This document shows positions 24,778 through 60,382 of a stretch of 64,000 bases of DNA, piece by piece (the stretch's first letter is position 1; each line of letters begins with the position of its first letter). The stretch lies in contig QEVC01000001.1 in the NCBI GenBank assembly GCA_003576945.1, positions 26,129 through 90,128 of the forward strand, in the 5' to 3' direction. The notes under the pieces are model-generated. The model searched no databases. It was not told where the DNA came from and saw only the letters and a list, made by a program, of their open reading frames with translations. This DNA comes from Candidatus Microgenomates bacterium. Lineage in GTDB: Bacteria > Patescibacteriota > Microgenomatia > UBA1400 > UBA12108. Made by a program: the position numbers and the translations under genes.

Positions 24778-24856
24778 GATTTCGCTATTATAACGAACGA
24801 GAGGGGATTTGTCACGGAGGGATACACTTTTGGTATATTTTAAATTGTGGAAAAAA

Positions 24857-24865
24857 TGTGGATAA
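24857..24865. promoter_or_regulatory. Perfect DnaA box (TGTGGATAA) in the rpmH/dnaA intergenic region
   Basis: Seen directly. It lies upstream of the dnaA start at 24920. Confidence 0.55.
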
Positions 24866-26266: not shown

Positions 26267-26508
26267 GTTATCCACATTCTTTGTGGATAAGTATGAGGAA
26301 AAGTGCGGGAAAAAATGAGGAAAACTTGAGTAAAAATGAGGATAAGTATGTTATCAACAATTAAATGGAGTTTATCCCCAAGCTTTTCCGGGTTGTTTTC
26401 CACCGCTTCCGCCAGACTTCTATCCACATATCCACAGACCCTAACAACACTATAACTATGTATTAAGCATTTAGTATTTGGTAGTATGTATAAGAAAAGA
26501 GAGGTGTT
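26267..26508. promoter_or_regulatory. Probable oriC: DnaA-box cluster plus three AAAATGAGGAWAA 13-mer-like repeats (candidate unwinding element)
   Basis: TTATCCACA at 26268-26276, TGTGGATAA at 26282-26290, CTATCCACA at about 26420-26428, ATATCCACA at 26429-26437, TTATCCCCA at 26372-26380. Repeats aatgagga(a/t)aa at about 26294, 26314 and 26335, in an AT-rich stretch. Confidence 0.6.
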
Positions 26509-27609
26509 ATGAAAATAGAAATTCTCCAAGAAGAATTGCTTAAAGGGCTTTTAGTTGTGTCGCGTGCAGTTTCAAGCAGGACACAGTTGCCAGTTTTGTC
26601 GGCGGTAAAAATTGAGGCACTGGCAACAGAACTTGTTCTATCAGCGACAGATTTAGAAATTGGGGTAAGGCACATTGTGTCTGCGAAAGTAGATGCACGG
26701 GGAGTGGTTGCGGTACCAGCAAAAACCTTTAGCGAACTACTAACCACACTCGCACCTGGAAAGTTGTCGATTGAGCTAAAAGAGCAAAATCTGATTATTA
26801 AATCTAAAGGCTTCACCGGCAAAATTGCGACAGTAGATGCTTCAGAGTTTCCAACCCTCCCCGAAATGAAAGAATCGCTAATTGGAGTGTCGGCATCTGA
26901 GCTTATGAAAGGGGTTTCAAACGTTGGTTTCGCGAGCGCGAAGGAGTCACTACGCCCTGTGCTTACCGGAGTGCTAATGGAGGTCTCAGAGAGCTTGCGG
27001 GTGGTTGCAACTGATGGGTTTCGACTAGCGGTTTCCACAATTGGAATTAAGGGTGCCACCATCAAGGCGCAGTCTTTGCTAGTCCCTGCACGAGCACTAT
27101 TTGAATGCGGAAAGATTCTTAGAGAGGGAGTTATTAAGATCGGATATCTTCCTGAATCGAAGCAAGTTTTATTTGTGGGAGAGCAAACACAGCTTAGTTC
27201 ACAGATAATTGAAGGAAATTTCCCTGATTACAACAAAATATTACCAAAAGAGTTTGTGACTAGAATGGTTGTCCCAAGAGAAGAGCTGCTTTCAGCGGTT
27301 AAGACAGCACTTGTTTTTGCCAGAGACAACTCAAACATGATGCGCTGGCGGGTGGAGGGTGGAAGACTTATGATTTCATCTAGTTCGAGTGGAAGTGGGG
27401 AAGGATTAGTTGAGGTTATGGTAAAAGCTGAAGGGGAAGAGCCCTTGGAAGTGGTATTTAACGCAAAGTATGTTATCGATTATTTAACTCTTCTGGACAA
27501 TGAGTCGGTGTGGGTTGGGCTTGGCGGAAAGCTGGCTCCAGGAATGATCGCGGAGAGCGAAAATGGCAGGGATAATGCTTTCTACGTGGTAATGCCGATT
27601 AACGCCTAG
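26509..27609 (+). CDS. dnaN: DNA polymerase III beta sliding clamp
   Basis: 366 aa with three-domain clamp architecture. N-terminus MKIEILQEELLKGL... Confidence 0.9.
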   Translation: MKIEILQEELLKGLLVVSRAVSSRTQLPVLSAVKIEALATELVLSATDLEIGVRHIVSAKVDARGVVAVPAKTFSELLTTLAPGKLSIELKEQNLIIKSKGFTGKIATVDASEFPTLPEMKESLIGVSASELMKGVSNVGFASAKESLRPVLTGVLMEVSESLRVVATDGFRLAVSTIGIKGATIKAQSLLVPARALFECGKILREGVIKIGYLPESKQVLFVGEQTQLSSQIIEGNFPDYNKILPKEFVTRMVVPREELLSAVKTALVFARDNSNMMRWRVEGGRLMISSSSSGSGEGLVEVMVKAEGEEPLEVVFNAKYVIDYLTLLDNESVWVGLGGKLAPGMIAESENGRDNAFYVVMPINA

Positions 27610-29540
27610 GAGTTTTGAGTTGTTTTAGGCGATTGACTGATAGGCTCGGTTTTAGTGGGAGGTGCGGCTTGTGCTGGTTGTGCTGGCACAGTGTTTATTT
27701 TTTGAGAAAGGGCCGCCTGAGCTTGTTTAAACTGTTGGGCCTCTGCCTCTTCTTTTTTGCGGAGAGCCTCCCTAGGATCAGTGGTAATTAGAGCATGCTC
27801 CTCGGGGGAGGCCACGACGCGCATGGCAACGTGATTTTGGCCGGCGAAAAAGAGTGATTCACCGACTTCGGCAGTGAGGAGTAGATGTCGTTCTCCTTGG
27901 GAGAGATAGAAAACATTGGCTAGTTTTTCGATGGCACTGGTGCTTTGTTTCATTAAAACCTGAATGCTGGCGTTACTAACGATAGCCTTGCCATGATCAT
28001 CTTTTAAGAAATCTTCAACGTCTTGGGTGATGGTAGTGAGGCCTAAGAAATATTTACGTGCACGTTTGGCGATACCATAGAGAAAGGTGGCGGAGTCTTC
28101 GTTTTTCATAAGATACCAGGCCTCATCAACCACCAAGAGGCGTCGCTTGAGGTCTCTTTTTACTTTGGTCCAGATATAGTCAAGAATAATAAAAATGGCA
28201 GTGGGTCTGAGTTCATCCTGAAGGTTTTTGATGCCAAAAACGGTTAGTTGTTTGCCAAAATCGACATTGCTCTTTTGAGAGAAAATCCCTTGGAAACTAC
28301 CCTTAACATACTTCTCGAGGCGGTCGGCGAGACCGCGAGCCACGGCCTCTTCCATACCAACTAGCGCTTTGTAGAGATCTTCCATGAGGGGTGGCTCGTT
28401 CTTGTGCGTTGTTGGGTCTCGATTGATGCCCTTCATCTGATATGTCATAACGAGCGCTCGATCCAAAAGCGCTTCTTCTTGGGCGGTGACGTCGCCCAGC
28501 ATGATTTTGAGGAGGGAGTGAAGGGAGATGATTTTCATGGCGAGTTCGTTTTCGTCGGGTTCGGCGAGCTGGGGAAGCTCGAAGGGGTTAATACGGTTGG
28601 GGGAGGTAAAACTAAAGTCGATGTAGGTGCCGTTAACGGTCTGGGCCATTTTGCGATATTCGTCTTCGGGATCGATAATAATAACCTCGGTTTCGAAGAG
28701 GAGAGAGCGAAGAATTTCTAGTTTGACCATATAACTTTTACCGGAGCCCGACTTGGCAAAAACTACCATGTTAGCGTTCTCCAGACTAAAGCGATCAAAG
28801 ACAACGAGACTATCATTATGTTCGTTGATGCCATACATAATACCTTCGTTGGCGGTTAGCTCACTACTAGTAAAGGGGAAGGTAGTGGCGAGGCTAGTAG
28901 TGTCCATGTTGCGATTGATTTTTAAGAAATCTTTACCCATGGGGAGAGTGGTTTTAAAACCGTCTTCGATTTGAAGGGTAGCGGTTTTGGCGACGATTAG
29001 GAGAGCACCCAAGGTGGATTTGATGTGGTTGGTGACTTTGTCGAGCACGTCTCTTTTGTCATCACGAATGGTTATATAGAGACCAAACTGAAAAAAACGT
29101 TCGGCGCCTTTGGCAAGCTGCTCTTGTAGACTCCGAGCATCCTCTAGTTTGACCTGGGTATCAATATTAATAATCTTGCCACGCTGAATATCTCCCTGGA
29201 GCTCAGCTTCCATTTCGGCGATTTTGCGCCGCAAGTCCTCGATGACCCCCTTGCCGTCGACGGGATAAATAAACATTGAAATACTAAGAGAGTGGGGAAA
29301 ATTGATTAAGGGTGAGAGCCAGTTGGCGTTAACAAAGCGGGGGTAGCCGGCGACGAATAGAGTGCGGTAGTACGTGTCGTTGATTTTGACGTCAGACCAG
29401 TCGACCTCGATCGCCTCAGGAGCAATAATGTCTTTTACATTGGTGGTACCAGTTGCAAGGATTTGAATGGGGGGAGAGACCGCGGGACCCTGCTCTTCGG
29501 TTTTTTTGTTTTTGCCAGCAAAAGGAAAGGGCAAGTTCAT
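27606..29540 (-). CDS. VirB4/TraC-family T4SS ATPase (Gram-positive PrgJ/ConE-like) with a Pro/Gln-rich C-tail
   Basis: Walker A VVFAKSGSGKSYMV, a Walker B region, and N-terminal IAPEAIEVDWSDVKINDTYYRTLFVAGYPRFVNANWL typical of the VirB4 N-domain. Stop codons overlap dnaN convergently. Confidence 0.7.
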   Translation of the reverse strand: MNLPFPFAGKNKKTEEQGPAVSPPIQILATGTTNVKDIIAPEAIEVDWSDVKINDTYYRTLFVAGYPRFVNANWLSPLINFPHSLSISMFIYPVDGKGVIEDLRRKIAEMEAELQGDIQRGKIINIDTQVKLEDARSLQEQLAKGAERFFQFGLYITIRDDKRDVLDKVTNHIKSTLGALLIVAKTATLQIEDGFKTTLPMGKDFLKINRNMDTTSLATTFPFTSSELTANEGIMYGINEHNDSLVVFDRFSLENANMVVFAKSGSGKSYMVKLEILRSLLFETEVIIIDPEDEYRKMAQTVNGTYIDFSFTSPNRINPFELPQLAEPDENELAMKIISLHSLLKIMLGDVTAQEEALLDRALVMTYQMKGINRDPTTHKNEPPLMEDLYKALVGMEEAVARGLADRLEKYVKGSFQGIFSQKSNVDFGKQLTVFGIKNLQDELRPTAIFIILDYIWTKVKRDLKRRLLVVDEAWYLMKNEDSATFLYGIAKRARKYFLGLTTITQDVEDFLKDDHGKAIVSNASIQVLMKQSTSAIEKLANVFYLSQGERHLLLTAEVGESLFFAGQNHVAMRVVASPEEHALITTDPREALRKKEEAEAQQFKQAQAALSQKINTVPAQPAQAAPPTKTEPISQSPKTTQNS

Positions 29541-29709
29541 ATGGAATTAGTATAACGCAAGTTAAGGGGTTTTTGTTTTTGGTTCGGCGCATTCCACCAG
29601 AAAAAGCGGTCTATCTCCGCCTGGTGGCGGAGCGACCACGCGAATCGGTCTACCCGCCCTGCGCTAAATTTTTCTTTGTGAAATTGCGCCTGCACCATTT
29701 TACAAAAAC
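29541..29709 (-). repeat. Copy 1 of a roughly 120-nt conserved structured element in the 5' leader of the VirB4 gene
   Basis: Shares ggttcggcgcattccaccagaaaaagcggtctatct...gcccgccctgcgctaaatttttctttgtgaaattgcgc with 30349-30501. The internal hairpin CTCCGCC-TGGT-GGCGGAG becomes CTGAGTC-TGGT-GACTCAG in copy 2. Confidence 0.6.
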
Positions 29710-30348
29710 TTACTTGGCGATATTGGGGGCGACAACTGGCGTTTCATAGTCGGCGGCGGTAGTGAATTTTTGTCCCTTAACCGTGCTGTTATAGTAACCA
29801 TGAAAGAGCTTCATGAGGTTTTGGCTGTTTAGCTGTTGGGCGGTGAGACCAATACGGGTTAGCTGTTTAATAATATGGTCTCGTTTAGGTTCGAGATCTG
29901 CCTTGGCACGACTTAACAACTCTTCTGTTATTTCGACTTTGCCTGACAAGGTAACCATTTGGTAGGAAACGATAATATAAAACTTTTTATCGAGGACGTT
30001 TTGCTCCTGGATGGTGGTCTCTATAAAATTCCGGTACTGACTCATGCGTGTTTTCATGGTTTCGTCTTTTAGTTTTTTCTCCTGGGCAACGAGGAGTTCG
30101 AGGTAACTACTAATATCCTTTTTTTCAGACTTGATTACGATTTGAACGGGGAAACTAAGAGAGTTTAATAGACCGGCATAAGCATAGATGGTAGCGTCTT
30201 GCTCTTCCTCAGAGAGGAGGCCAAAGTTGATCGCGGAAGTTTGGATAACAACACTGATTAGGCCACCACGAAGCACAACAACATCGTCTTGAATGGTTTC
30301 TACTTCGAGGTGGTCTTGGGTGGTTGCGACAATAATAGAGTCGGACAT
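29710..30348 (-). CDS. Soluble protein with a VirB4-N-domain-like motif, function unknown
   Basis: VVVLRGGLISVVIQTSAINFGLLSEEEQDATIYAYAGLLNSLSFPVQIVIKS resembles the N-terminal module of Gram-positive VirB4 proteins. Inference only. Confidence 0.4.
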   Translation of the reverse strand: MSDSIIVATTQDHLEVETIQDDVVVLRGGLISVVIQTSAINFGLLSEEEQDATIYAYAGLLNSLSFPVQIVIKSEKKDISSYLELLVAQEKKLKDETMKTRMSQYRNFIETTIQEQNVLDKKFYIIVSYQMVTLSGKVEITEELLSRAKADLEPKRDHIIKQLTRIGLTAQQLNSQNLMKLFHGYYNSTVKGQKFTTAADYETPVVAPNIAK

Positions 30349-30501
30349 GATATTAGTATAACAGTTAGGGTTCGGCGCATTCCACCAGAAAAAGCGGTCT
30401 ATCTGAGTCTGGTGACTCAGCGACCTCGAGCTCGGGCTGCCCGCCCTGCGCTAAATTTTTCTTTGTGAAATTGCGCTTCACCCCTTTGTTAAGTTAACAA
30501 A
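30349..30501 (-). repeat. Copy 2 of the roughly 120-nt structured element in the 5' leader of the 212-aa gene
   Basis: See 29541-29709. There are compensatory substitutions in the hairpin. Confidence 0.6.
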
Positions 30502-31533
30502 CTAGGAGTTTGCCTGAATTTCAAATGGTTGGATAATTTGGTTTTGGACTATGAGTTGTTGGGCGGGAAAGGTGTGTCCATCCGCTTCAACCTCAATCCG
30601 GTACGTGCCGGGGGAGAGGGGCGTGCTGGTCGCAAATTGACCGAGAGCATTGGTTTTCATGGCTCGGGCGGGTACGCCGGTTCCATCTAGTACTTGAACA
30701 ATCGCGCCCTCGATAAGCTTGCCATCTTTACTAGTGGTGATCCCAACTATTAGGTTGGGACTACGGGGTGGGACGGGGAGGTTGATGGATTTTAGTTTGG
30801 TATTTGCGGCTGACTGTGGGGCGACCGCAACTGGTTTGGGGGATGCAGAAAAGATGAGGTTGTTGGGAACTGTAGCCTCTTGGGGTTTTTCGACTCTTGA
30901 TTTTGAGTCTACCACGGTAGTCGGTTGAACCTTAGGAACGACGATTGGCTTGGGAGGACTGACTGGAGGTGGAACTGTTTTTTCGGCGGCCTTTAATTTG
31001 CGGACAGTGATCGCCGGCTTGTCAAAAACGATGTCGGTTTGAGGTTTAGGGTCGGTAGTTGAGGTTATGGGCGCTGGGGCATTTGAAAAAAGAGTATTAA
31101 GCGATTTTACTTGAGAGTTTTCTGCATCACTGAGATCGGAGTCGGTGGCGAGAGAGACTTTTTGAGTAGGTGCCTTGATCGTTTTGGTGATAGTGTTAGT
31201 TGCGGCGATGGGATGGGCAGTAAAAGTAAAAATACTCGGAACCTTGTTGGTTTTTTTCCAGGTAAAGCGCGTGGGTTTGTAGATCGCATTTACAAAGTTA
31301 ATGATCCATTGGTCAAGGGGCCTGTCTTCGATGGGGAAAAATGCGAGGGCGATACCAAAGAAAACTGAAAGGAGAATCAAGGGAGCTTTAAAAATAAAAA
31401 GGAGATTACTACTATAGAAAAGGACGGCGAGGAGTAGGCCGGCGGCTAGTTCGAGAAACTGTTTGAGAGTCATGTCGCCCACGAGGCGGAACTGGTACTG
31501 GGTGACGTTTTGAGGGACAGGGTGCTGGTTCAT
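30502..31533 (-). CDS. Two-TM N-terminal (VirB3/PrgI-like?) membrane protein with a Pro-rich linker and a C-terminal beta-sandwich-like domain
   Basis: Start taken at ATG 31531-33 (MNQHPVPQNVTQYQFRLVGDMTLKQFLELAAGLLLAV...); the track used an upstream TTG. Two hydrophobic helices precede a PPVSPPKP linker. Confidence 0.4.
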   Translation of the reverse strand: MNQHPVPQNVTQYQFRLVGDMTLKQFLELAAGLLLAVLFYSSNLLFIFKAPLILLSVFFGIALAFFPIEDRPLDQWIINFVNAIYKPTRFTWKKTNKVPSIFTFTAHPIAATNTITKTIKAPTQKVSLATDSDLSDAENSQVKSLNTLFSNAPAPITSTTDPKPQTDIVFDKPAITVRKLKAAEKTVPPPVSPPKPIVVPKVQPTTVVDSKSRVEKPQEATVPNNLIFSASPKPVAVAPQSAANTKLKSINLPVPPRSPNLIVGITTSKDGKLIEGAIVQVLDGTGVPARAMKTNALGQFATSTPLSPGTYRIEVEADGHTFPAQQLIVQNQIIQPFEIQANS

Positions 31534-31580
31534 GAATATAGTATAAAGTACCAAGTAAAAAGTACCTAGTGTATGGGATT

Positions 31581-32189
31581 TTAGTTGGAGAAGGTGTAGG
31601 TGTGGCTGTCGGGGTCGAGACCATTTTCTTTGACCCAGTCGCGGACGGCGTTTATTATTTCACCGCGTTCTTCTACTCCAACTTTGAGGGTAATTTCGAG
31701 GTGCTTTGGACTTTTGTAGAGAATGGTAAAGCCAGGCGCCTCATATGGGATTTTGTTGGCCAAAGGATAATCACGCTTGATCTCGTCGACTACTTCTTGA
31801 TTGGCGCGGGGCTCGCTCTGTTGAGGAATAGTGGTAAAAGTGAGAGTTTTGAGGGGTTGATTGTTGTAGAAAATATTAAGCGTATATTCAGTATTTACGA
31901 ACAGGTATTTTTTTGACTGGAGCTTAACAATGTTGTTGGGAGCAGAGGTAATGTCCCAAGATTCTTCGGGGATAGAGGTAACTGACAAGAGATTGGGGTC
32001 GACGGCGGTAGCAAATTTAAGCTGAATAGGCTCGAGATAACTGACTTTGGTGGCGTAATCAGAAGGGATGGTGGCGAGAAGGGTGGGGAGGGGCGTGGGT
32101 GGAGTGATAAAGAACGAGAAGATTAATAAGCCGAGAGAGATAATAGCGAGAGCAATGAGAAAGGGTTTTTTGGTTAAGAAATGGAACAT
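31581..32189 (-). CDS. N-terminally anchored extracytoplasmic protein (possible VirB8-like role)
   Basis: 202 aa with a TM at residues about 9-30. Functional assignment is inference. Confidence 0.35.
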   Translation of the reverse strand: MFHFLTKKPFLIALAIISLGLLIFSFFITPPTPLPTLLATIPSDYATKVSYLEPIQLKFATAVDPNLLSVTSIPEESWDITSAPNNIVKLQSKKYLFVNTEYTLNIFYNNQPLKTLTFTTIPQQSEPRANQEVVDEIKRDYPLANKIPYEAPGFTILYKSPKHLEITLKVGVEERGEIINAVRDWVKENGLDPDSHTYTFSN

Positions 32190-32198
32190 AGGGTTAGT

Positions 32199-35087
32199 TT
32201 AGATTTTTTTAAGACAACCAGCAACCCGACTACTAAGCCAGGTACAACCATCGGGTCCGCGGACAACCCCGTTACCACCACCATTAGCGTCGGCACAGCG
32301 GATAGTGGCGCCGCCATTGTCAATAAACACGCCGACGTGGCCATAACCACCAGTAGTCGTATCGACAAAGAAATCTCCTGGACTACAACTACCGATGCCG
32401 AGGACGGGCTTGTAGCCGGTGGGTGGGCTCGCAAGCAGAGTTTTGGCGTCGCCAAAACCAGAACCAGCACCACCATTGGCGACGTCGATCGCGCGGACAA
32501 AACCTACACATTGGAGGTAGGTGTAATTGGTGGCCGACTCTTTTAAGACAGCAATAGCGCTTTGAGCGAGAGTGCTGGCGAGGACGCACTGCCAACTATT
32601 GCCGTTTGCGTTGCTGGAGGTGAGAGGGTTAATGCCACACTTGCTTAGTATCTCAACGATACAGGCGGCAGTCTGGATGCGTGAGTTATTTTTGCCCCCA
32701 CCTTCGCCACTATCACAGAGGAGACTACCTATAAATTGACCTGCGCCGGAGTCGAGACTGAGGTTGACGTCGAGACGAGTAGTAACATCTAGATCAGAAA
32801 GGTTAGTAATATTTACAAAACTCATTACCCCAATAATTATGAGAGCGAGCATAAGCGACCCTAGAGTCAATGTAAAAACTCCACCGAGAAATATTCCCAG
32901 GCCCGTAAATATGCCAGCAAACAATCTCCCAATATTAAGGGTTGCAAGGAAGGCAGATATTGCGAGTCCCCAACCCACAACAGTTTCTCGAAACCTGCCA
33001 TCTTTAAAGAATTTTTTGAGAAAACTCCAACCCGCAGAGATTAAGTCCAGGGCAAGACTACCCACAAAGAGTACTGTGCCGATAATAGTACCAGATGAGG
33101 CGATGGCACCAATCAGCTTAGCCCCAGTTTTGGCTAAAGCCTTACCCCCAATTTTGATTAAAAAGCGGGTAGTGGCGCGGCCTGCTTGGATCCCTACGTA
33201 TTTACCAACATCTGATAGTCCGACCTTAGCAAGACTCCACTTAATGGCTTTACCCCACTGCCTACTGGCAAAAGCCGTAGTGGCTCCACCAACTGTGTGT
33301 CCGCCTAGCTCAAAATATTTGAGACCCCAGTTGATGACTGGTCTGGCAGGCTCTAGGACAACTTTCCACCCTTTATACTTGCCTGCTCCTTCTGCTAGCC
33401 ACCTAGTCGTGGTGACTTTTTTCCATTCGTCTAAGCGATCTTGGATCCAGGGGGCAATGCGAAAGAGGGGGATTTTGGTACCAGGAATTGTGACGTGTTC
33501 GGCGATTTCGTCCCATTTATCAAAAGCTCTGTGGAGAAGTTTTTTGCCTGTGATGGTTTCTTCAAAATCGATCCAGGAGTCAAGAATTTTGGTTTGAGCT
33601 TCATAAAGGCGAGATCTAGCATCAAGTACGCGGCGACCCCAGTGTGCACGGGAGATTTCGCGACGTTCAATGGGAGTTAGGCTAGTATAATAACTAAGGT
33701 CAGCATTAAGATGTCGGGCATTAATAATAAAATCAACATCGATGTTTTTGCCAGGCTTATTACTTTCTGCCTGGTAGGCATCGTAGAGGTTGTCAAATTT
33801 TGTATTATTTTTTGTGTTGTAGGCGAGGAGGAGCTGATCCTTTTTGGTACTAAGCCTCGCTTCGGTTTTGAGATATTGATGTTCATCGCGGAGAAAGAGA
33901 GTGGGATTAATACCTTTTTGAACTAGACTCCATTCGCGGCGCGTAAGACGATAGTTGTTAAGAGTTTCGACTTTTTGATTTTGGATGTACTCGAGTGAGA
34001 CGTCAAACCCTTGATTTTTGATACTGCTGCCTAGGTCGGTGAGAATAGAGGGTGAAATACTTAACTGCTGGCCAGTAAGAGTCATTAATTCATCAAAACT
34101 GCGTTTTTCGGTAGCACTACTAGTGGTAGTTTTGAGGAGAGTGGTAACAAGACGCGTTCGATCCGTTTCATTTAGGTTAGGGAGCGCGGAGGAGAGGCGA
34201 GACTTTAGCTCTGTTTCGTTTAAGAGCTGAGAGGAGAGCGAGCGAGCCGCCTCGAGGCGACGCGTTTCGTAGGTTTCGACAAACTCATTACCACCAAACT
34301 CTTTGACTATATTGTTAACAAGTTCTCTGGTTTGACGACTAGTCTTTTCTTCTTTGACGTAGGTGAGGAGGTCGGAACTTTCGGGGTAGGACTGTTTAAT
34401 GAGATCAGTTAGTTTGGAAGCTACAGCAAAATCTTTAACTTGATCACTCCCACCAGTACTCCCGGCGGCATGGAGGTCGCTTAAGTTGGCGGTTATGATG
34501 CGGGCAAACTGGGCGCGGAGGGCGGCTTCGCTAATACTGGTTCTACCTGGGGGGAGAATATCTCTAATTAATTTTTGGGGAACGACACCAGTATTTGCAT
34601 ATTTGAGGGCCTCAAAATACATTTTTGTATAGAGGTCGTACTGCTTGCCGGGGTCGTAGGAGGATGTTTTGACGATCGCCACGTCGAGTTTTTTGGCACG
34701 GAGAGCAGCGATGTTTTCGATACGCGCGGCAGTTAAGAGTTTGTTGGGATCTTGGACTTCTTTGGCAAAAATGAGAGAGGCACTACGAGCAAACTCTTCT
34801 TCACTCTTAATTCTACCCAGCTTTTCTTGATCCTCTTTGTTAATGCCCTTGACGTAGATTAAGTAGTCGAGGACGAGCTGTTTTGCTTCGGTAATGCTAA
34901 TGTATTCGGGTTCTTGCCCATTATCGACTGGGAGAGATACACCGCGGCTACCACCGACTATTTCTGCCTGGGAGGAGAGCTGCTCTAGGAGCCATTCTTG
35001 GATGAATTGGCGATTGGCGCCTTCTGACAACCCTCGGTTGTTTTTATAAAAAGTGGATTGTTGGTAGGTGATGAGTCGACGAGCCAT
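32199..35087 (-). CDS. Large membrane-spanning protein with a C-terminal CHAP-domain peptidoglycan hydrolase (VirB1/PrgK-like role)
   Basis: 962 aa: an about 650-aa N-domain without a signal peptide, 3-4 TM helices (about 660-760), and C-terminal YLQCVGFVRAI...GDFFVD...GYGHVGVFID, the Cys/His CHAP catalytic pattern. Confidence 0.6.
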   Translation of the reverse strand: MARRLITYQQSTFYKNNRGLSEGANRQFIQEWLLEQLSSQAEIVGGSRGVSLPVDNGQEPEYISITEAKQLVLDYLIYVKGINKEDQEKLGRIKSEEEFARSASLIFAKEVQDPNKLLTAARIENIAALRAKKLDVAIVKTSSYDPGKQYDLYTKMYFEALKYANTGVVPQKLIRDILPPGRTSISEAALRAQFARIITANLSDLHAAGSTGGSDQVKDFAVASKLTDLIKQSYPESSDLLTYVKEEKTSRQTRELVNNIVKEFGGNEFVETYETRRLEAARSLSSQLLNETELKSRLSSALPNLNETDRTRLVTTLLKTTTSSATEKRSFDELMTLTGQQLSISPSILTDLGSSIKNQGFDVSLEYIQNQKVETLNNYRLTRREWSLVQKGINPTLFLRDEHQYLKTEARLSTKKDQLLLAYNTKNNTKFDNLYDAYQAESNKPGKNIDVDFIINARHLNADLSYYTSLTPIERREISRAHWGRRVLDARSRLYEAQTKILDSWIDFEETITGKKLLHRAFDKWDEIAEHVTIPGTKIPLFRIAPWIQDRLDEWKKVTTTRWLAEGAGKYKGWKVVLEPARPVINWGLKYFELGGHTVGGATTAFASRQWGKAIKWSLAKVGLSDVGKYVGIQAGRATTRFLIKIGGKALAKTGAKLIGAIASSGTIIGTVLFVGSLALDLISAGWSFLKKFFKDGRFRETVVGWGLAISAFLATLNIGRLFAGIFTGLGIFLGGVFTLTLGSLMLALIIIGVMSFVNITNLSDLDVTTRLDVNLSLDSGAGQFIGSLLCDSGEGGGKNNSRIQTAACIVEILSKCGINPLTSSNANGNSWQCVLASTLAQSAIAVLKESATNYTYLQCVGFVRAIDVANGGAGSGFGDAKTLLASPPTGYKPVLGIGSCSPGDFFVDTTTGGYGHVGVFIDNGGATIRCADANGGGNGVVRGPDGCTWLSSRVAGCLKKI

Positions 35088-35135
35088 AGGCTAATTGTAA
35101 CATTGCATCTGGTGTGGTGTGGTAGAATTGGAAGA

Positions 35136-38588: not shown

Positions 38589-38618
38589 TAGTTTTCTAAA
38601 GGTTAAATTGTGAGAAGA

Positions 38619-40127
38619 CTATTTTTTACTAGCAAGATCTTTTATTCCTGCCGCCATTTGTTTTTGGTAATCGAGCTGTCTTGTTGCTTCGCGTTGGTGT
38701 TCTAGGCTTGTCTTCCAGCCATAGGCTGTCTTACCTAGTGCCATGGCTCCACCTAAGCCAGCGCCGATCTCGCTGGTGTATGGAGATTCTTTGACCTGGA
38801 GCCAGTCCATCGCCATCTTGGCAGCGGCGGGGGTCATGGTAAAGATAAAGAATCCGATTAGTCCCATTAGATCGTTGGCTTGGAGATCAGTACCAGTAAG
38901 GGTGAAGGGTGGGAGCCACATCGCGCCATCGTCTCCTGTTTGAGCATAGAAAGAACTACTACTATCGATACCAAATGGATTACCATCGACACCAAAAGCG
39001 CCGGTGTTCCAGAGCGTGGATTTGGAGGGATCACCGACAAGTATGGCGGCAAAAATAAACATAGCGGCGACTACTGGGAAGGGGAGGAGATAGCTAGCAG
39101 TTTTTTTGAGCCATTCGGAGAAGGCTTTGCTACCAGGCATGGCGTTCATGAGGATTTGGATCGGAGCGGTTACTGTCTGGATAATTAACATTACATAAGC
39201 TTTGACTAAGACAAAGAGCAGCTTAATCATTGTGACTCCGAGCCAGACTGCGGCGATAAGGGCGGAGGGGGAGAAGATGGCGACCCCTTTGCCAATAAAT
39301 CCAGTTAGGCCATCACCAACACCTGAGAGGAGCCTGTCAGAGGCAGCGGCGACTGCCCAGATGACACTATTACGGCCAGAAAAGATTACACTCCACGCTG
39401 ATCCACCCAAGAGACGACTAATTGCGTCGACGGGAGTTCCAATAATACCAATAGTGCTGAGTAGATAAACCAGGAAATAGATCAGAAAATACATGATGTC
39501 GATCATAAAGCCGACTATGGCATAGCTAAAAGTGATAAGAAGGAGAGTGATTAGGAGGTTGGGGAGTGCGGCTTGGATAGTGATGACAGTCTGAGCATTA
39601 ATTTTGGTTCTGAGCATGATCATGATACCTACCACCACAAACATTACGATATAAAGTGCGTAGGCGACGTTGCGAAAACCTTTCCAGAATTCGAGAAACG
39701 GTCCCATGGCGGCATACCCAGTACCTTGAGCGTAGGCGCGTGGAGCCAGAGTGGGGAGACCAATATTGTTGGCAATGTCAGCTAGATATTGTTGACTAGT
39801 GATCCCGTTTTGAAACAGAGAAGCCACCATTTTTCCCGACTGTGGTAGGAGTGCTGCAGTATTACAATTTTTACCGCTCGCATCTTGTAATCCACCAATC
39901 ATAAGAACTGGGGTAGCGATAAGAGTAATGGGTTGGCGCCCTGGTTTGTAGTCACTCTCACCACCATCTGTTTCATATTCACTGAGATCACAGTTGCCAA
40001 CACTACCAAATTCGTATTTAAAAAGATTGTTTGGTGTATTACCAGATACATCAGAAATTGATGCATGTGTGGATTGTGGTATAGCTAAAGTAAGTATTAC
40101 ATAAGCCAGAAGGAGAAATTTTTTCAT
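38619..40127 (-). CDS. Polytopic membrane protein with signal peptide (VirB6/TrbL-like candidate)
   Basis: 502 aa with signal peptide MKKFLLLAYVILTLAIPQSTHA and at least 6 TM helices. The assignment is by position. Confidence 0.45.
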   Translation of the reverse strand: MKKFLLLAYVILTLAIPQSTHASISDVSGNTPNNLFKYEFGSVGNCDLSEYETDGGESDYKPGRQPITLIATPVLMIGGLQDASGKNCNTAALLPQSGKMVASLFQNGITSQQYLADIANNIGLPTLAPRAYAQGTGYAAMGPFLEFWKGFRNVAYALYIVMFVVVGIMIMLRTKINAQTVITIQAALPNLLITLLLITFSYAIVGFMIDIMYFLIYFLVYLLSTIGIIGTPVDAISRLLGGSAWSVIFSGRNSVIWAVAAASDRLLSGVGDGLTGFIGKGVAIFSPSALIAAVWLGVTMIKLLFVLVKAYVMLIIQTVTAPIQILMNAMPGSKAFSEWLKKTASYLLPFPVVAAMFIFAAILVGDPSKSTLWNTGAFGVDGNPFGIDSSSSFYAQTGDDGAMWLPPFTLTGTDLQANDLMGLIGFFIFTMTPAAAKMAMDWLQVKESPYTSEIGAGLGGAMALGKTAYGWKTSLEHQREATRQLDYQKQMAAGIKDLASKK

Positions 40128-40141
40128 AGATTAGTGCGATT

Positions 40142-40687
40142 TTAGCGCAGTAGGCCAAGTTTATCTACCCATTCGTTGGCGGTGACGCGGACGTAATCAG
40201 CTTGACCGTAATCAAATAGGAGTTGTTTGGGTTCGATGCCGGACTCGCGGAGGAGCTGGAGAGCTTTGGTAAAGGTCTCTTGAAAAGCCTGGAGATTAGG
40301 ATTTTTCTCGGGATCGAGCTCGTCTTTGTTGAGATAGGAGAGGCCAGTAATGTCGAGGCGCGTGAGAGAGGGCTCGGTCGGGTGAAGAGTGATGTCGATA
40401 CTAGTATCGATACCCACGGAGGTTTTGAAATTGCGCATCCTGATCGGGAGGCGATCTGCGATAAGAGTGCGGTAACTGATGGCGTTATTTACTTTTTCCT
40501 CGGTGAGATTGGTAAAGTCGGAGAAGGGGTTATTGTTTGAGGATTGTTCTTGTGGGGTGCTAACTGGCGTGGGATTAGGGGTGCGTGAACTAAAGATTAA
40601 AACTAAAAAAAGAATAATGATCGAAATAGAAACGGCGGTTAGGAGAAATTTGTTGGTAAAGAGACGTTTGGTGAGTTGTTGTAGCAT
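40142..40687 (-). CDS. N-terminally anchored small protein, paralogue of 41914-42432
   Basis: Start moved to MLQQLTKRLF... so it matches the paralogue. The shared block is NLTEEKVNNAISYRTLIADRLPIRMRNFKTSVGIDTSIDI...LSYLNKDELDPEKNPN. Confidence 0.45.
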   Translation of the reverse strand: MLQQLTKRLFTNKFLLTAVSISIIILFLVLIFSSRTPNPTPVSTPQEQSSNNNPFSDFTNLTEEKVNNAISYRTLIADRLPIRMRNFKTSVGIDTSIDITLHPTEPSLTRLDITGLSYLNKDELDPEKNPNLQAFQETFTKALQLLRESGIEPKQLLFDYGQADYVRVTANEWVDKLGLLR

Positions 40688-40704
40688 AAGATTTAGTATA
40701 CAGA

Positions 40705-41841
40705 CTAACTGAGTAGTTGTGGGAGTGTCTGGAGGGCTTGTTTGATGGGTAATATCTGAATGTTTTCGATTTTTCTTTCCCGTTCTCCGCCATAAAAGAC
40801 AAAACACTTGGCAGATGGATATTCGGAGTAAAAAGTTTTGAGACCACGTATATCTTTTAGACTCACTTTATCCGAGTGTTTGACCTCGATGGCTATTAAA
40901 CCTGAGTTGCCATATAGAATAAAGTCTACTTCTACTCCATGAGTAGTACGCCAAAAGAATACGTTGTAATCAAGCTCCAAATTTGAGACGATTGCATTTA
41001 AGTTTTGCCAGACTAAACTTTCCCAGGCTATTCCTTCGATTTCATGGGGACTGTTAAGTGGGCCACTCGGCCTAAGAGTTTGGTAGATTCCAACATCGAA
41101 GAAGTAAAATTTGTTGTGAGAAACGAGTTTTCTTTTTGATTTGTGGGTAAAGACTGGGAGACGAGATGCAACGAGCAAATCTTCGAGAATACTAAGGTAG
41201 TTTTCGACAACCTTTCGCTCGATCATTGCTTCGCGAGCGATCTCTGAGGTGTTAATCAGCGAACCCTGAGAGTAGCTTATTGTTTCGAGAAATCTTGCAA
41301 AAGCACCAATGTTGCGAGTTAATCCTTCCTGCTTTACTTCCTGGGTGAGATAGGTGTTGACATAGCTCTCGAGATATTTCTTTGGATATTTGGTTGTTTG
41401 AGTGGTGGGTAACAGTCCATATTTTACTGCCTTTTTAAAGTCAAAATCTTTGCCTAGTTCGACTGCGCTTAAGGGTAGTAGATTATAGGTGAGCGCGCGA
41501 CCTGCAAGAAGATTAACACCACTTTTTCGTAATTTGCGTGCACTACTACCAGTTAAAACAAATTGATAGTGATGTGATTCGATTAGGCGATGTACTTCGT
41601 GCAGCAATTCGGGGATGCGTTGAATTTCGTCGAGAATAACTGGACTTTTGTTGTTGAAAGGAATTATCTCATCTAGTCTGCTAGGATTGGCTACTAATTC
41701 GTTGTAAACCCTAGCCTCTAGAAGATCCAAATATAGAGCATTGGGATATTTCTGACGCACTAAAGTAGTTTTTCCTGCCCCGCGAGGCCCAAGTAGGAAG
41801 ATGCTTTCATCGCGAGGTAAAACGATATTTCTGGAATACAT
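40705..41841 (-). CDS. AAA+ ATPase, DUF4143 family
   Basis: Walker A LLGPRGAGKTTLV, plus a C-terminal domain typical of DUF4143 proteins. Confidence 0.7.
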   Translation of the reverse strand: MYSRNIVLPRDESIFLLGPRGAGKTTLVRQKYPNALYLDLLEARVYNELVANPSRLDEIIPFNNKSPVILDEIQRIPELLHEVHRLIESHHYQFVLTGSSARKLRKSGVNLLAGRALTYNLLPLSAVELGKDFDFKKAVKYGLLPTTQTTKYPKKYLESYVNTYLTQEVKQEGLTRNIGAFARFLETISYSQGSLINTSEIAREAMIERKVVENYLSILEDLLVASRLPVFTHKSKRKLVSHNKFYFFDVGIYQTLRPSGPLNSPHEIEGIAWESLVWQNLNAIVSNLELDYNVFFWRTTHGVEVDFILYGNSGLIAIEVKHSDKVSLKDIRGLKTFYSEYPSAKCFVFYGGERERKIENIQILPIKQALQTLPQLLS

Positions 41842-41913
41842 AACTCCATTTTAACCAAATATTTGGAGTTGTCAACTCCAAATATTTGCTTGTTAGTACA
41901 AATAGAACTCGAG

Positions 41914-42432
41914 TTAGCGAAGAAGGTCTAGTTGTTCTACCCAGTAGGTGGCGGTGGTGTGTATATCTGTTCGGTCGCCATAACTAAAAATGAATTGGGT
42001 AGGATCGGCACCAGACTCACGAATGAGGGATAGCGCGCGGGCGTAGCTCTCGGCAAAGGCGATGATATTGGGGTTCTTTTTAGGGTCGAGTTCATCTTTG
42101 TGAAGGTAACTTAGACCGTAGATCTCGAGACGCATGAGGGAGGGATCGTCGTCACTGAGTGAGTAAATGTTAATAGTCGTGGTGATGCCAACGCTGGTTT
42201 TGAAGTCTTTGAGATAGATTGGGAAGCGATCCTGGACGAGCTTGCGGTAGTTTATGGCATTTTTTACTTTTTCCTCTGTGAGGTTAGTTAGTTCGGCGCG
42301 GAGCTGCGTGGTCGTGGGTTCGGGTGGGGGAGAAGAGAGAGGCGGGGTGGTCTTTCGTGGGGAGATGATAAGTATGAGTATTAGGATGAAAATTGAGATC
42401 GAGAAAGCGATGATAAAGAATTTTTTATTCAT
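41914..42432 (-). CDS. N-terminally anchored small protein, paralogue of 40142-40687
   Basis: RAELTNLTEEKVKNAINYRKLVQDRFPIYLKDFKTSVGITTTINI...LSYLHKDELDPKKNPN. Confidence 0.45.
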   Translation of the reverse strand: MNKKFFIIAFSISIFILILILIISPRKTTPPLSSPPPEPTTTQLRAELTNLTEEKVKNAINYRKLVQDRFPIYLKDFKTSVGITTTINIYSLSDDDPSLMRLEIYGLSYLHKDELDPKKNPNIIAFAESYARALSLIRESGADPTQFIFSYGDRTDIHTTATYWVEQLDLLR

Positions 42433-42433
42433 A

Positions 42434-45312
<2,879 letters not shown>

Positions 45313-45316
<4 letters not shown>

Positions 45317-45600
45317 GATTGGAAGCCAAAGTTGAATTGAGTAACTGGAGCGCCGGTTAGGTTTTCGATGAGGAGGAGAATGAGCCAGGAGATAATCGCG
45401 AGGGCGAGGCCGCCGACAGCGAGACCAATAGTTTGTTTACCACCTTGTAATCCCTTGGGATCACCACCGCTCGTTAGGATTTTGAAGCCACCGACTAAGA
45501 TCATAATAAAAGCAATCATGCCAATTAAAGGGATTATGGCTGATAAAACATTGCCAAAGTAGTCTGGTAGTTGATCGAGGCGTGCGGCGTCTGAGTCCAT
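45313..45600 (-). CDS. Small two-TM VirB2/TrbC-like (pilin-like) protein, array member 1
   Basis: 95 aa: hydrophobic helix, FKILTSGGDPKG loop, second helix LAVGGLALAIISWLILLLIENLTG. The 4-nt overlap (ATGA) with the upstream gene suggests translational coupling. Confidence 0.5.
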
Positions 45601-45614
45601 GTTTGTAATTATAG

Positions 45615-45646
45615 TACAAAAACCCCGCTTACGCGGGGTTTATTGC
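45615..45646 (-). terminator. Rho-independent terminator inside the pilin-like array
   Basis: CCCCGC-TTAC-GCGGGG hairpin. On the minus strand it is followed by TTTTTG. Confidence 0.5.
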
Positions 45647-45666
45647 ATTGTTTGTAACAAAAAGTC

Positions 45667-46020
45667 TTAGTAAGCAGTTGGAGGAGTGATGTTGTCGTTG
45701 AGGATCGAGATACCAAAGAAGTATTGGATGATCAACATGACGGCCCAGGCGGAGGCGACGACGGCGAGACCGACGAGTGCAGCGGTGATACGATCGCGCG
45801 CTTCTTGGGTTTTACCTTTATCTCCACCACTAGTGATCCATTGAATACCACCCCAGATGAGGTACATAAAGACGAGGAGCGCAGAGACGAGGAGAGCGCC
45901 TTGGACGGCACCTTTGATCAACGTTCCAATATTGGTGATTGCGACGTTATCTGGCTTGCCGATTGAGAGATCTGGAGCAGCTGGTGCAGCCATAACTTTT
46001 TCAACGATTGAGAATGACAT
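45667..46020 (-). CDS. Small two-TM pilin-like protein, array member 2
   Basis: ...YLIWGGIQWITSGGDKGKTQEARDRITAALVGLAVVASAWAVMLIIQYFFGI. Confidence 0.5.
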   Translation of the reverse strand: MSFSIVEKVMAAPAAPDLSIGKPDNVAITNIGTLIKGAVQGALLVSALLVFMYLIWGGIQWITSGGDKGKTQEARDRITAALVGLAVVASAWAVMLIIQYFFGISILNDNITPPTAY

Positions 46021-46040
46021 ATTTATCTCCTTATGTATTA

Positions 46041-46069
46041 GTACTTAGTACATAGTACATGGTACATGG
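46041..46069. repeat. GTACATAG-type 8-nt periodic repeat immediately upstream of array member 2
   Basis: gtacttagtacatagtacatggtacatgg. Related copies at 22235-22250, 46811-46833 and 53188-53216. Confidence 0.5.
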
Positions 46070-46109
46070 TTATAATTCTAGTATTTCTGATTATAGCAAT
46101 AATATTAAG

Positions 46110-46454
46110 TTATTTGGTAATCCCAATACCAAAGAAGTAATCGACGAGCAGATAGACTGCCCAAGCTGAGGCGACGATGGCGAGACCAACAATTGCCTGA
46201 GTGATTTTGTTCCTGGCCTCCTCGAGCTTGCCTTTGTCGCCACCGGCAGTGATCCAGTTGATCCCGCCGTAGACGAGATACATAAACGTGGCTAGACCTG
46301 CAACCAAGATCACTGCTGAGAAACTACGTGAGACAAAGGTTCCTAGATCTTCATTAATTGCTACCCTAGACTTAACCTGATCGTCGACGTTGATCGCAAA
46401 ACTACCACCTTGGGCGGATGCAGTTTTGATTAGTTTTAAAGTTGTAAAGTCCAT
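46110..46454 (-). CDS. Small two-TM pilin-like protein, array member 3
   Basis: ...YLVYGGINWITAGGDKGKLEEARNKITQAIVGLAIVASAWAVYLLVDYFFGI. Confidence 0.5.
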   Translation of the reverse strand: MDFTTLKLIKTASAQGGSFAINVDDQVKSRVAINEDLGTFVSRSFSAVILVAGLATFMYLVYGGINWITAGGDKGKLEEARNKITQAIVGLAIVASAWAVYLLVDYFFGIGITK

Positions 46455-46467
46455 AAAGTTTTTGAAG

Positions 46468-46863
46468 CTACCCTGCGGTAGGCCAGATAATATTTAATAA
46501 ATCAAGTCCGATGGCAGACTCGATAAACTTAACTACGACGTAGCTGGCTGCTAGGACAGCTAGACCAATTAATCCCTGGGTGATTTTGGCTCTACTCTCG
46601 TCAAGTTTACCCTTGTCGCCACCAGCAAGGATCCAGTTGAGTCCACCCCAAAGAAAGTAGAGAAGGAAGGCTAGTCCACCAACAATTATAATGGTTTGCC
46701 AGAGAGTGGCCATGGTAATTGCGAATTGTTGGGGCGCACTGTCGGGTGATTCTCCACCTGGAATTGCAGTGTTGGTGATCGCGGCGCGCGCGAGAGGGGC
46801 ACGAGAAGATAGTACATAGTACGTGGTACATAGCTGGAGGAAAATGATCTGTTTAAGTTTCAT
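46468..46863 (-). CDS. Small two-TM pilin-like protein, array member 4 (with signal peptide)
   Basis: MKLKQIIFLQLCTTYYVLSS... then YFLWGGLNWILAGGDKGKLDESRAKITQGLIGLAVLAASYVVV. Confidence 0.5.
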   Translation of the reverse strand: MKLKQIIFLQLCTTYYVLSSRAPLARAAITNTAIPGGESPDSAPQQFAITMATLWQTIIIVGGLAFLLYFLWGGLNWILAGGDKGKLDESRAKITQGLIGLAVLAASYVVVKFIESAIGLDLLNIIWPTAG

Positions 46864-46865
46864 AT

Positions 46866-47228
46866 TTAATTAAAGGTTAGTCCTTGAATAAGCACGCCGG
46901 GCTCGAGGATGTTAAGACCGAGGGCGGCACTCACGATCCAGGTGATGGAGTAGGAGAGAACGATAATAATTAAACCAATGGCGCCGCCAGTCATCATGCC
47001 TTTGGCCTTGTCAATTTTGCCTTTGTCACCACCGGCAGTAATCCAGTTAAGACCTCCCAAAAGAAAGTAGAGAACAAATGCGATTCCCGCAATAACAGTT
47101 AAAACTACAAGAGTGTTACTGATTAGTTTTTCGACAGCACTAGTACTACCATCGATGCCACCACCAGGTTGATAGCCGCCGGGAGTGGTGATGGTTTGAA
47201 AATCTAAGGCTTTGACTTTGGTAATCAT
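46866..47228 (-). CDS. Small two-TM pilin-like protein, array member 5
   Basis: ...YFLLGGLNWITAGGDKGKIDKAKGMMTGGAIGLIIIVLSY. Confidence 0.5.
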   Translation of the reverse strand: MITKVKALDFQTITTPGGYQPGGGIDGSTSAVEKLISNTLVVLTVIAGIAFVLYFLLGGLNWITAGGDKGKIDKAKGMMTGGAIGLIIIVLSYSITWIVSAALGLNILEPGVLIQGLTFN

Positions 47229-47234
47229 AGGTTA

Positions 47235-47570
47235 TTAAAGACTCCCGGGGCCAGTAATACTAGGTGTTAGGATGGCACCAGCGTTGTTGAATAATAGAAA
47301 AGAGACGACACCAGTGACTGCGGCAGCGCCCACCATAATAATTAGACCAAGGAGAGACATATTGATTGAGTACATGGCCGCTTGAATTTTTTTCTCGTCA
47401 CCACCCGCGGTAATGTAGGTAAAACCAGCGATCATGAGATTGAAGAAAGCATAAAGTCCGGCGGCGGCAAAGATGACGGTAATAACATTACTCACAAAAC
47501 TGGGAAGACCGGTGTCGACGTTGCCGTAGCCGGTGATGGGACTATCGATGCTACCAAAGACGCCTGCCAT
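47235..47570 (-). CDS. Small two-TM pilin-like protein, array member 6 (divergent)
   Basis: ...FNLMIAGFTYITAGGDEKKIQAAMYSINMSLLGLIIMVGAAAV. Confidence 0.45.
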   Translation of the reverse strand: MAGVFGSIDSPITGYGNVDTGLPSFVSNVITVIFAAAGLYAFFNLMIAGFTYITAGGDEKKIQAAMYSINMSLLGLIIMVGAAAVTGVVSFLLFNNAGAILTPSITGPGSL

Positions 47571-47574
47571 AATT

Positions 47575-47877
47575 TTATAAAATCTCTAGTCCGGTGACGA
47601 TTTGGATAATTTGAATTATCCAATACGACCCGAAGACAACTAATAAACCCATTATAGCAAAAGTAATAGTTTTTTTACCCTCCTCCATCTTGTGAGCATC
47701 GCTTGCACCGCTAATTACATTAAAGCCGCCAAGAATAAACATAAAAAAAAGTACTAGTCCGGCGGCAACATAAACATTAGGAAGAATGGCGTTAATTAAG
47801 TCGCTCGCACTGCTGTAGGTGGAATCAGCACCACTACCTTGGAAAATTAGCTTTTCACCCAGATTAAAGCCAGCCAT
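47575..47877 (-). CDS. Small two-TM pilin-like protein, array member 7 (divergent), first gene of the array
   Basis: ...FMFILGGFNVISGASDAHKMEEGKKTITFAIMGLLVVFGSYWIIQIIQ. Confidence 0.45.
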   Translation of the reverse strand: MAGFNLGEKLIFQGSGADSTYSSASDLINAILPNVYVAAGLVLFFMFILGGFNVISGASDAHKMEEGKKTITFAIMGLLVVFGSYWIIQIIQIVTGLEIL

Positions 47878-49593: not shown

Positions 49594-49672
49594 ATACACT
49601 TAAATATACATTTAAATGTATATTTGTCAAGTTGGGCGAATGGTTTTGGTGTAAGTAGGCGACTAATAGGGT

Positions 49673-60341: not shown

Positions 60342-60382
60342 AAACTACCTCCAATGTTTAACTGACTTTACTATAGCAAATT

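Follow-up and report, generated by a model that had tools for sequence, protein, structure and literature searches.

A probable Patescibacteria-clade type IV secretion system beside dnaN in a Candidatus Microgenomates chromosome

A recent study delineated a Patescibacteria-specific VirB4 clade, related to the MPF_FATA class and accompanied by TrsD, PrgI and VirB6 homologues (Quinonero-Coronel et al. 2025, PMC12102498). These type IV secretion systems (T4SSs) carry arrays of 2-11 VirB2-like pilins, which are particularly frequent in Microgenomatia and Saccharimonadia, and relaxases are nearly absent (PMC12102498). In Southlakia epibionticum ML1, transposon sequencing (Tn-seq) showed most genes of the cluster SEML1_0006-0019 to be essential for epibiotic growth (Wang et al. 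2023, PMC10633639); the cluster contains pilins, and coupling and relaxase proteins are missing from it (PMC10633639). Among T4SSs, that of Patescibacteria was the first found to be essential for the growth of its bearer (in Saccharibacteria), and a 2025 review treats the Patescibacteria systems as the most recent additions to the superfamily. Here, we describe a locus at 27606-47877 of a 64-kb stretch of DNA from Candidatus Microgenomates bacterium (contig QEVC01000001.1, positions 26,129 to 90,128), hereafter the window, to which all coordinates refer unless a related locus is named. The locus is probably a vertically inherited chromosomal T4SS of the Patescibacteria-specific clade, which would serve host contact and macromolecule transfer and not conjugation. 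It combines a monoderm-type VirB4 with a TrsD-like neighbour, a PrgI-like protein and a PF18895 pilin array, has no adjacent relaxase or type IV coupling protein (T4CP), and abuts dnaN, as expected of this clade, which descends from monoderm conjugation machinery (MPF_FATA). The class of system is already published, and the locus is a Microgenomatia example of it with modest refinements: a pilin-anchored lysozyme-like protein, a hypervariable orphan gene, an insertion hotspot, and slow-evolving, ordered pilins.

The span comprises eighteen minus-strand genes interrupted by one large plus-strand gene (35058/35136-38588), and its terminal gene, virB4, converges on dnaN with a 4-bp overlap. All open reading frames (ORFs) that an original prediction, made from the letters alone, had listed here do exist at the coordinates given, and its proposals of a VirB4-family ATPase, a protein with a VirB4-N-domain-like motif, a VirB3-like protein with two transmembrane (TM) helices, a membrane-spanning CHAP hydrolase, two paralogous anchored proteins and seven VirB2-like small proteins hold up in the searches described below. 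The motor and membrane genes are:

27606..29540, minus strand: VirB4-family ATPase, 644 residues, corresponding to the C-terminal two-thirds of a CD1110-type VirB4
29710..30348, minus strand: TrsD-like protein, 212 residues, a detached VirB4 N-terminal domain
30502..31533, minus strand: PrgI/VirB3-like protein, two TM helices followed by a beta-sandwich resembling CarboxypepD_reg at the C-terminus
31581..32189, minus strand: N-terminally anchored protein, 202 residues, with one TM helix at 10-28 (the VirB8-like candidate of the original prediction)
38619..40127, minus strand: polytopic membrane protein, 502 residues, with six predicted TM helices, a VirB6-like candidate by topology and position

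The 644-residue protein scores 401.8 bits (cutoff 325) against NCBIfam NF045971 ('VirB4-like conjugal transfer ATPase, CD1110 family'), aligning with positions 182-733 of 752. Further matches are to Pfam P-loop_TraG (1.7e-28) and AAA_10 and, among solved structures, to VirB4 of PDB entry 4AG5 (3.7e-44); the Walker A motif of the protein reads AKSGSGKS. Close homologues in candidate phyla radiation (CPR) metagenomes number thousands, the named ones belonging to Collierbacteria or Microgenomates, in line with a Microgenomatia and not a Saccharibacteria genome, and the best plasmid relatives are VirB4 proteins of Firmicutes and Actinobacteria (30-39% identity). A phage-derived packaging or injection module with a HerA/FtsK-type or terminase-like ATPase has to be weighed against this assignment, in view of the match of phrog_2666 to VirB4 residues 49-302 (2e-30) and of weak matches to DUF87/HerA (1.5e-8) and Phage_tube_C (8.4e-4). 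However, the VirB4-specific models score far higher, above the curated cutoff, and the solved-structure match is a VirB4. The same PHROG also matches the TrsD-like protein colinearly, which is the pattern of a VirB4 N-domain, and therefore looks like a mislabelled VirB4-like family. The TrsD match aside, nine of the ten locus proteins scanned have no PHROG match, and the locus yielded no genes for capsid, portal, tail or integrase. The check for an FtsK/HerA phage ATPase with phage structural neighbours, proposed together with the original prediction, thus came out in favour of VirB4. A phage origin is refuted by the VirB4 models, the PHROG pattern and the lack of phage structural genes, and we give it a negligible probability.

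VirB4 is split into two genes at this locus, as the 212-residue protein matches the N-terminal ~180 positions of NF045971 that the 644-residue protein lacks. It covers positions 3-171 (1.5e-8) at a score below the curated whole-protein cutoff, and matches VirB4_plasma (1e-9) as well as the TrsD model NF041427 (26 bits, 5.6e-6, below cutoff). The TrsD-like protein is 81-97% identical in relatives. In the 170-bp spacer that separates it from virB4 (29541-29709), alignment to relatives revealed a single kept element, a TATACT -10-like motif ~10-15 nt ahead of the virB4 start, which suggests that virB4 is transcribed from its own promoter with a very short leader. A conserved RNA element in this spacer was considered and rejected, since the spacer is unconserved apart from the motif. 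The PrgI/VirB3-like protein (350 residues as listed) exceeds the gathering score of PF12666 PrgI (30.0 bits; gathering 27) and falls slightly under that of CarboxypepD_reg (31.4 bits; gathering 32.3), with TM helices at residues 28-46 and 57-75. Its orthologues have 333-342 residues, and the ATG at 31533 is therefore preferred over the listed TTG at 31554.

The remaining membrane components are less readily named. The six-helix, 502-residue protein is 50-67% identical in close relatives, but has no Pfam, NCBIfam or PDB-sequence match, even when its family is searched as a profile. Six TM helices and position thus speak for the VirB6-like label of the original prediction, family and PDB-sequence searches do not, and we infer a VirB6 channel role. 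By hidden Markov models (HMMs), VirB6 is scarce in Microgenomatia (PMC12102498). The VirB8-like label of the 202-residue protein found no support in sequence: Pfam and NCBIfam models of VirB8, PrgL and TcpC, and PDB sequences, match neither this protein nor the anchored 181- and 184-residue proteins described below, each of which has a TM helix. The 202-residue protein shows a weak Ig-like Big_5 match (2.3e-4, under the gathering score), and its position is kept in relatives at 30-60% identity.

At the far end of the locus lies a seven-gene array of VirB2-like pilins (45313..47877), and two further pilin genes are found 5 kb away, beyond the originally reported span:

45313-45600, minus strand: array pilin 1, PF18895
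45667-46020, minus strand: array pilin 2, PF18895
46110-46454, minus strand: array pilin 3, PF18895
46468-46863, minus strand: array pilin 4, PF18895
46866-47228, minus strand: array pilin 5, PF18895
47235-47570, minus strand: array pilin 6, PF18895
47575-47877, minus strand: array pilin 7, PF18895
52857-53249, minus strand: extra pilin gene, 130 residues, PF18895 at 40.4 bits
53252-53668, minus strand: extra pilin gene, 138 residues, PF18895 at 21.3 bits

All seven array pilins match PF18895 T4SS_pilin with E-values from 4.7e-9 to 3e-4 (4/7 above the gathering score), and each has two TM helices. The 138-residue pilin is 53% identical to a pilin module fused to the 960-residue protein discussed below, giving a total of nine free-standing pilin genes plus one fused module. 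The array paralogues share 18-48% identity with one another and have one-to-one orthologues, in the same order, in five relatives (59-99% identity); another related locus, L007, likewise holds seven pilin genes. Pilin arrays have been proposed as a possible source of antigenic or host-range variation (PMC12102498), but one-to-one conservation fits distinct structural roles better.

The array is part of a slowly evolving core. Compared with the related locus L005, nonsynonymous divergence (dN) amounts to 0.01 in VirB4 and to 0.01-0.11 in the pilins; compared with L008, it reaches 0.13 in VirB4, 0.29 in DnaA and 0.43 in DnaN. Synonymous divergence (dS) is saturated, which makes dN/dS unusable and leaves the dN ranking alone meaningful. 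By this ranking, the T4SS core genes, pilins included, evolve more slowly than DnaA and DnaN, and purifying selection on the core is extremely strong. VirB4 is 99% identical to its L005 counterpart as protein and 82.6% identical as DNA, and a mosaic or recombinant origin was accordingly rejected as the main cause of the uneven L005 protein identities. Such conservation of the motor and of every pilin paralogue argues for an indispensable, structurally ordered pilus and against arrays that serve to vary antigens or host range.

Mobility functions are missing from this neighbourhood. Neither VirD4 nor relaxase nor integrase domains turned up in the scanned ORFs of the window or in the 10 kb to its left, and no T4SS-DNA_transf, TraG-D_C or FtsK-like match pointed to a coupling ATPase within the 64 kb; genuine P-loops there are those of DnaA, VirB4 and a DUF4143 protein only. 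The absence of a coupling protein covers the window and these 10 kb; the right end of the window meets IS200/IS110 elements. This agrees with the original prediction, which had reported neither VirD4, relaxase nor integrase in the window and had named a VirD4 and relaxase just outside it as grounds for reclassification. Flanking ORFs scanned with Pfam encode housekeeping, transport, toxin-antitoxin and insertion sequence (IS) genes only. The same absences bear on whether the locus is a conjugative element, an integrative conjugative element (ICE) or a remnant of one, with its relaxase and coupling protein encoded elsewhere or too divergent to be seen, the 1176-residue orphan protein, for example, being a DNA-processing factor. 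VirB4 does have its nearest relatives among conjugative ATPases of the CD1110 family from plasmids of Firmicutes and Actinobacteria; the orphan protein is large, predicted to be cytoplasmic and without family assignment; and the authors of PMC12102498 allow for 'very different relaxases'. Nevertheless, the locus edges show no tRNA, no GC or compositional break and no flanking repeat, no integrase or second T4SS-type P-loop ATPase is present in the 64 kb, and the core evolves more slowly than dnaA and dnaN, unlike mobile DNA. Gene order in six related loci is as in the window. One contig of 964,590 bp, with a VirB4 of 84% identity, keeps the surroundings on both flanks: rpmH/rnpA-yidD-yidC-jag-Wzy-Polysacc_synt-RNaseH-DUF4012 and then dnaA-dnaN on one side, and the genes for sigma factor, NUDIX, AA_kinase and UppS on the opposite side. 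With the junction and both flanks syntenic, the locus is a long-standing part of the chromosome that has been passed on vertically. The mobile reading is therefore largely refuted and, in our estimate, very improbable. The claim that the locus had been inserted after dnaN, in an unusual placement, likewise falls, since the neighbourhood is syntenic and proximity of virB4 to dnaA/dnaN is typical in Microgenomatia and Paceibacteria (PMC12102498). What stands is the broader proposal of a secretion, pilus or host-contact apparatus distinct from a classical conjugative element, which fits the domain content, the missing mobility genes and the published Patescibacteria clade.

An apparatus without coupling protein or relaxase may also face inward. 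A DNA-uptake machine like Helicobacter ComB or archaeal Ced, feeding DNA or nucleotides to a nucleotide-auxotrophic epibiont, is compatible with the set of VirB4, VirB3-like protein, polytopic protein and pilins without nearby VirD4 or relaxase. VirB4 weakly matches CedB (1.4e-13, 50 bits), comF, recG and radA lie close to T4SS genes in the ABY1 class (PMC12102498), and a ComFC-like gene is present 11 kb from the T4SS (59136-59696, plus strand), encoding a double zinc ribbon and a phosphoribosyltransferase by weak matches. However, the CedB score is far under its cutoff of 700 and an eighth of that obtained with the CD1110 family, and nothing in the locus was recognised as a DNA-binding or nuclease component. 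In Southlakia, moreover, deletion of comEC ends competence and not viability, whereas the T4SS is essential (PMC10633639); its essentiality is thus not explained by the known DNA-uptake route. We consider uptake an unlikely function.

Two large proteins associated with the T4SS core appear equipped to act on the cell wall:

32199..35087, minus strand: 962-residue protein with a TM-free N-terminal region of ~650 residues, a block of 3-4 TM helices and, at the C-terminus, a CHAP peptidoglycan hydrolase domain
42434..45316, minus strand: 960-residue exported Cys-rich protein with signal peptide, ectodomain and a C-terminal VirB2-like pilin hairpin at 883-954

The CHAP domain of the 962-residue protein (residues 853-935) scores 25.9 bits, marginally under the gathering score of 26, and its Q859, C860 and H917 are invariant across four orthologues; the TM helices fall within 658-764 (TM block ~650-765). 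The 960-residue protein is 100% identical to DPW11_02440, a protein from a metagenome-assembled genome at NCBI. Sequence motifs and local model confidence indicate that its ectodomain appears to carry a lysozyme-like domain at ~630-830. The pairing of lysozyme-like and CHAP domains expected of a VirB1-like hydrolase is thus found at the locus, the lysozyme-like domain being predicted.

Several points weigh against a host-contact T4SS. In Microgenomatia, its function, pilus and substrate are putative. The VirB6 and VirB8 roles find no support in sequence at this locus. The lysozyme-like call is based on a model with a mean predicted local distance difference test (pLDDT) score of 70, and for this fold in the 960-residue protein Foldseek returned no significant match and Pfam and PDB sequence searches were empty. 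Among phage families, the one that VirB4 matches best carries the PHROGs label 'terminase large subunit' (2e-30). Finally, another part of the genome may harbour a VirD4-like gene; T4CP/VirD4-like genes are present in many Patescibacteria genomes, mostly distant from virB4 (PMC12102498).

With these points in mind, a host-contact T4SS would work as follows. The PrgI/VirB3-like protein would tether the VirB4 motor to the membrane, and the ATPase would drive the extraction and polymerisation of pilins into a short pilus or conduit across the cell wall, while the hydrolases would open the cell's own wall, that of the host, or both. The apparatus would then mediate contact with the host cell and the transfer of proteins or other macromolecules. 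A role other than conjugation is proposed because no relaxase, coupling ATPase or integrase accompanies the locus.

The gene that interrupts the minus-strand genes stands apart from them:

35136..38588, plus strand: orphan protein of 1150 residues from the ATG at 35136 (1176 residues from the TTG at 35058), highly charged and all-alpha

Neither a TM helix nor a signal peptide is predicted in the 1176-residue protein, and no known fold was recognised. The orphan (~1100-1200 residues) keeps its position in five close relatives and diverges very fast. It proved unrelated to the N-terminal region of the 962-residue protein when tested as a paralogue, and a 1548-residue positional analogue in L006 was rejected as a member of its family (hhalign probability 0.1%). 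The CHAP (962-residue), orphan and, less so, 960-residue genes evolve much faster than the T4SS core, and these fast-changing central genes are natural candidates for host-specific interaction or cargo. A bolder proposal, which we hold to be doubtful, is that the 960-residue 'muralytic pilin', the 1176-residue protein as effector or as recruiter replacing VirD4, or both, are functionally new parts. The VirB2-like hairpin of the former could polymerise into the pilus or cap it, so that a Cys-rich, lysozyme-like head of ~850 residues would drill the host wall; the orphan could be a translocated effector or a novel substrate-recruiting factor standing in for VirD4. If either idea is true, one-to-one conservation of nine pilins would indicate a heteropolymeric, ordered pilus and not antigenic variation.

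Between the pilin-bearing 960-residue gene and the VirB6-like gene lies a segment that differs among strains:

40142..40687, minus strand: anchored small protein, copy 1, 181 residues from the ATG at 40687, with no family or PDB match
40705..41841, minus strand: AAA_14 + DUF4143 ATPase (DUF4143 5.2e-32, AAA_14 7.7e-24)
41914..42468, minus strand: anchored small protein, copy 2, 184 residues, 54% identical to copy 1

The ORF of copy 1, listed with 221 residues, probably starts at 40687, giving 181. A profile search of PDB sequences with the anchored small-protein family was empty. The protein is single-copy in the six relatives showing the slot, and the duplication is specific to this genome; copy 1 is nearest to the single copy of L005 (74% identity), and the two window copies score alike against L003, L001 and L007. 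Both copies flank the DUF4143 gene, one on each side. The ATPase itself was correctly spotted originally, but it is not a component of the system. It is not present in L001-L005; the member in L008 is 28% identical and sits at a different place in that locus (6919-8055), on the opposite strand; another DUF4143 gene, left of the window, is present in some strains only. Upstream of the gene, TTGACA-16-TAAAAT is the best promoter-like site in the locus (11/12, sigma-70-like) and overlaps a perfect 15-bp inverted repeat, CAAATATTTGGAGTT-gtc-AACTCCAAATATTTG, at 41856-41888; this palindrome is likely an operator of the passenger gene. Taken over the whole locus, promoter and terminator scans did not rise above chance. 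As a strain-specific passenger under its own promoter, the DUF4143 ATPase is unrelated to the T4SS, and DUF4143-type ATPases are not to be counted as T4SS parts in annotation. In L002, the same slot, bounded by the anchored small protein and the VirB6-like gene, is occupied by an AbiEii toxin-antitoxin pair together with an ATPase_2/DUF234 ATPase. Accessory genes of these kinds (DUF4143/AAA_14 ATPases, the ATPase_2/DUF234 ATPase and the AbiEii pair) have landed at positions that differ by genome: 40142-42468 in the window, 6743-9690 in L002, 6919-8055 in L008 and 16465-17751 in L013. The T4SS locus is a repeated insertion hotspot for accessory genes.

The T4SS lies within a classical origin neighbourhood on one side and is adjoined by a candidate regulator on the other:

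upstream of the locus: rnpA, yidC and jag/KhpB, then dnaA (24920-26266) and dnaN (26509-27609)
26268-26436, dnaA-dnaN spacer: DnaA-box cluster, a putative oriC, 8 matches with <=1 mismatch in 170 bp
47915-48454, plus strand: extracytoplasmic function (ECF)-type sigma-70 family factor (Sigma70_r2 9.4e-14, and r4_2), with a 37-bp spacer to the pilin array

Two further DnaA-box matches occur at 24846-24865, and the virB4 stop codon is ~1.2 kb from the box cluster. GC skew of the plus strand is positive from position 1 to ~60 kb with unchanged sign at dnaA; either replication is not what drives the skew here, or the active origin is at another site. Should the plus strand be leading, replication would meet the 20-kb T4SS operons head-on. 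The sigma factor is divergent from the pilin array and adjoins it in all relatives examined (L001-L005, L007), and is a possible regulator of the locus. Between it and the NUDIX genes, a 120-residue PIN-domain toxin with an overlapping upstream partner of 90 residues (48984-49599, minus strand) forms a probable VapBC-type toxin-antitoxin pair. Two YidC/60KD_IMP paralogues occur in the window (202-1053 and 23281-24018), and 8544-9572 encodes a Fic/DOC-domain protein whose C-terminal domain is DIP2311-like. Rfam identified a tmRNA gene at 58699-59112 (minus strand, 88.5 bits) beside smpB (58217-58654), and ARAGORN reported neither tmRNA nor tRNA across the window. At 60000-64000, GC content and GC skew drop and an IS200-type Y1 transposase is encoded (62704-63135); other assemblies of the same organism stop at the right end of the window or run into an IS110 transposase, and this is likely an assembly-breaking repeat region. 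The 10 kb left of the window are housekeeping (Band_7, citrate-lyase-like enzymes, GroES/EL). Within them, three neighbouring genes at 11427-14291 of L012, which carry domains of Citrate_synth_N/Citrate_bind, Ligase_CoA and Citrate_synt, make up a set of ATP-citrate-lyase or citryl-CoA type that is unexpected in a metabolically minimal Microgenomatia genome.

The closest counterparts of the locus are the Patescibacteria-clade systems, including that of ML1, with which it shares a chromosomal position beside dnaA/dnaN, an MPF_FATA-like VirB4 partnered by TrsD-like and PrgI-like proteins, peptidoglycan hydrolases, tandem divergent PF18895 pilins and the lack of a nearby relaxase or coupling protein. 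It differs from ML1, a member of Saccharimonadia, in belonging to Microgenomatia and in having pilins co-oriented with the core genes and not divergent from them. The hydrolases are distinct as well: a polytopic-anchored CHAP protein and a predicted lysozyme-like protein anchored via a pilin module here, as opposed to a soluble-type lysozyme/cysteine-protease (0006) and a DD-peptidase (0007) in ML1. The VirB6 candidate has 502 residues here and 1088 in ML1, no NTF2/VirB8-like protein was detected here by sequence, and a fast-evolving opposite-strand gene of ~1100-1200 residues splits the window cluster. Bordetella Ptl, Brucella VirB, Helicobacter ComB and archaeal Ced likewise combine VirB4 and one or more pilins with no dedicated nearby VirD4 or relaxase, and provide precedents for protein export or DNA import. 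However, Ptl, Brucella VirB and ComB are diderm and Ced archaeal, their accessory components differ, and detectable homology is confined to VirB4, VirB3 and VirB2. Compared with the monoderm MPF_FATA systems (pCF10 Prg/Pcf, pIP501 Tra, pGO1 Trs and C. difficile CTn2), the locus is not on a mobile element, and no relaxase, T4CP or PrgB-type surface adhesin was found; lytic transglycosylase-like and CHAP domains, united in one protein in PrgK/TraG, reside on separate proteins here; and VirB2-like pilins are present, unlike in Gram-positive conjugation systems, which are without them. In common with these monoderm systems, it has a CD1110-family VirB4, a PrgI-type VirB3, a CHAP wall hydrolase as in PrgK/TraG and no outer-membrane core complex, and it shares with pGO1 the split of VirB4 into TrsD- and TrsE-like proteins.

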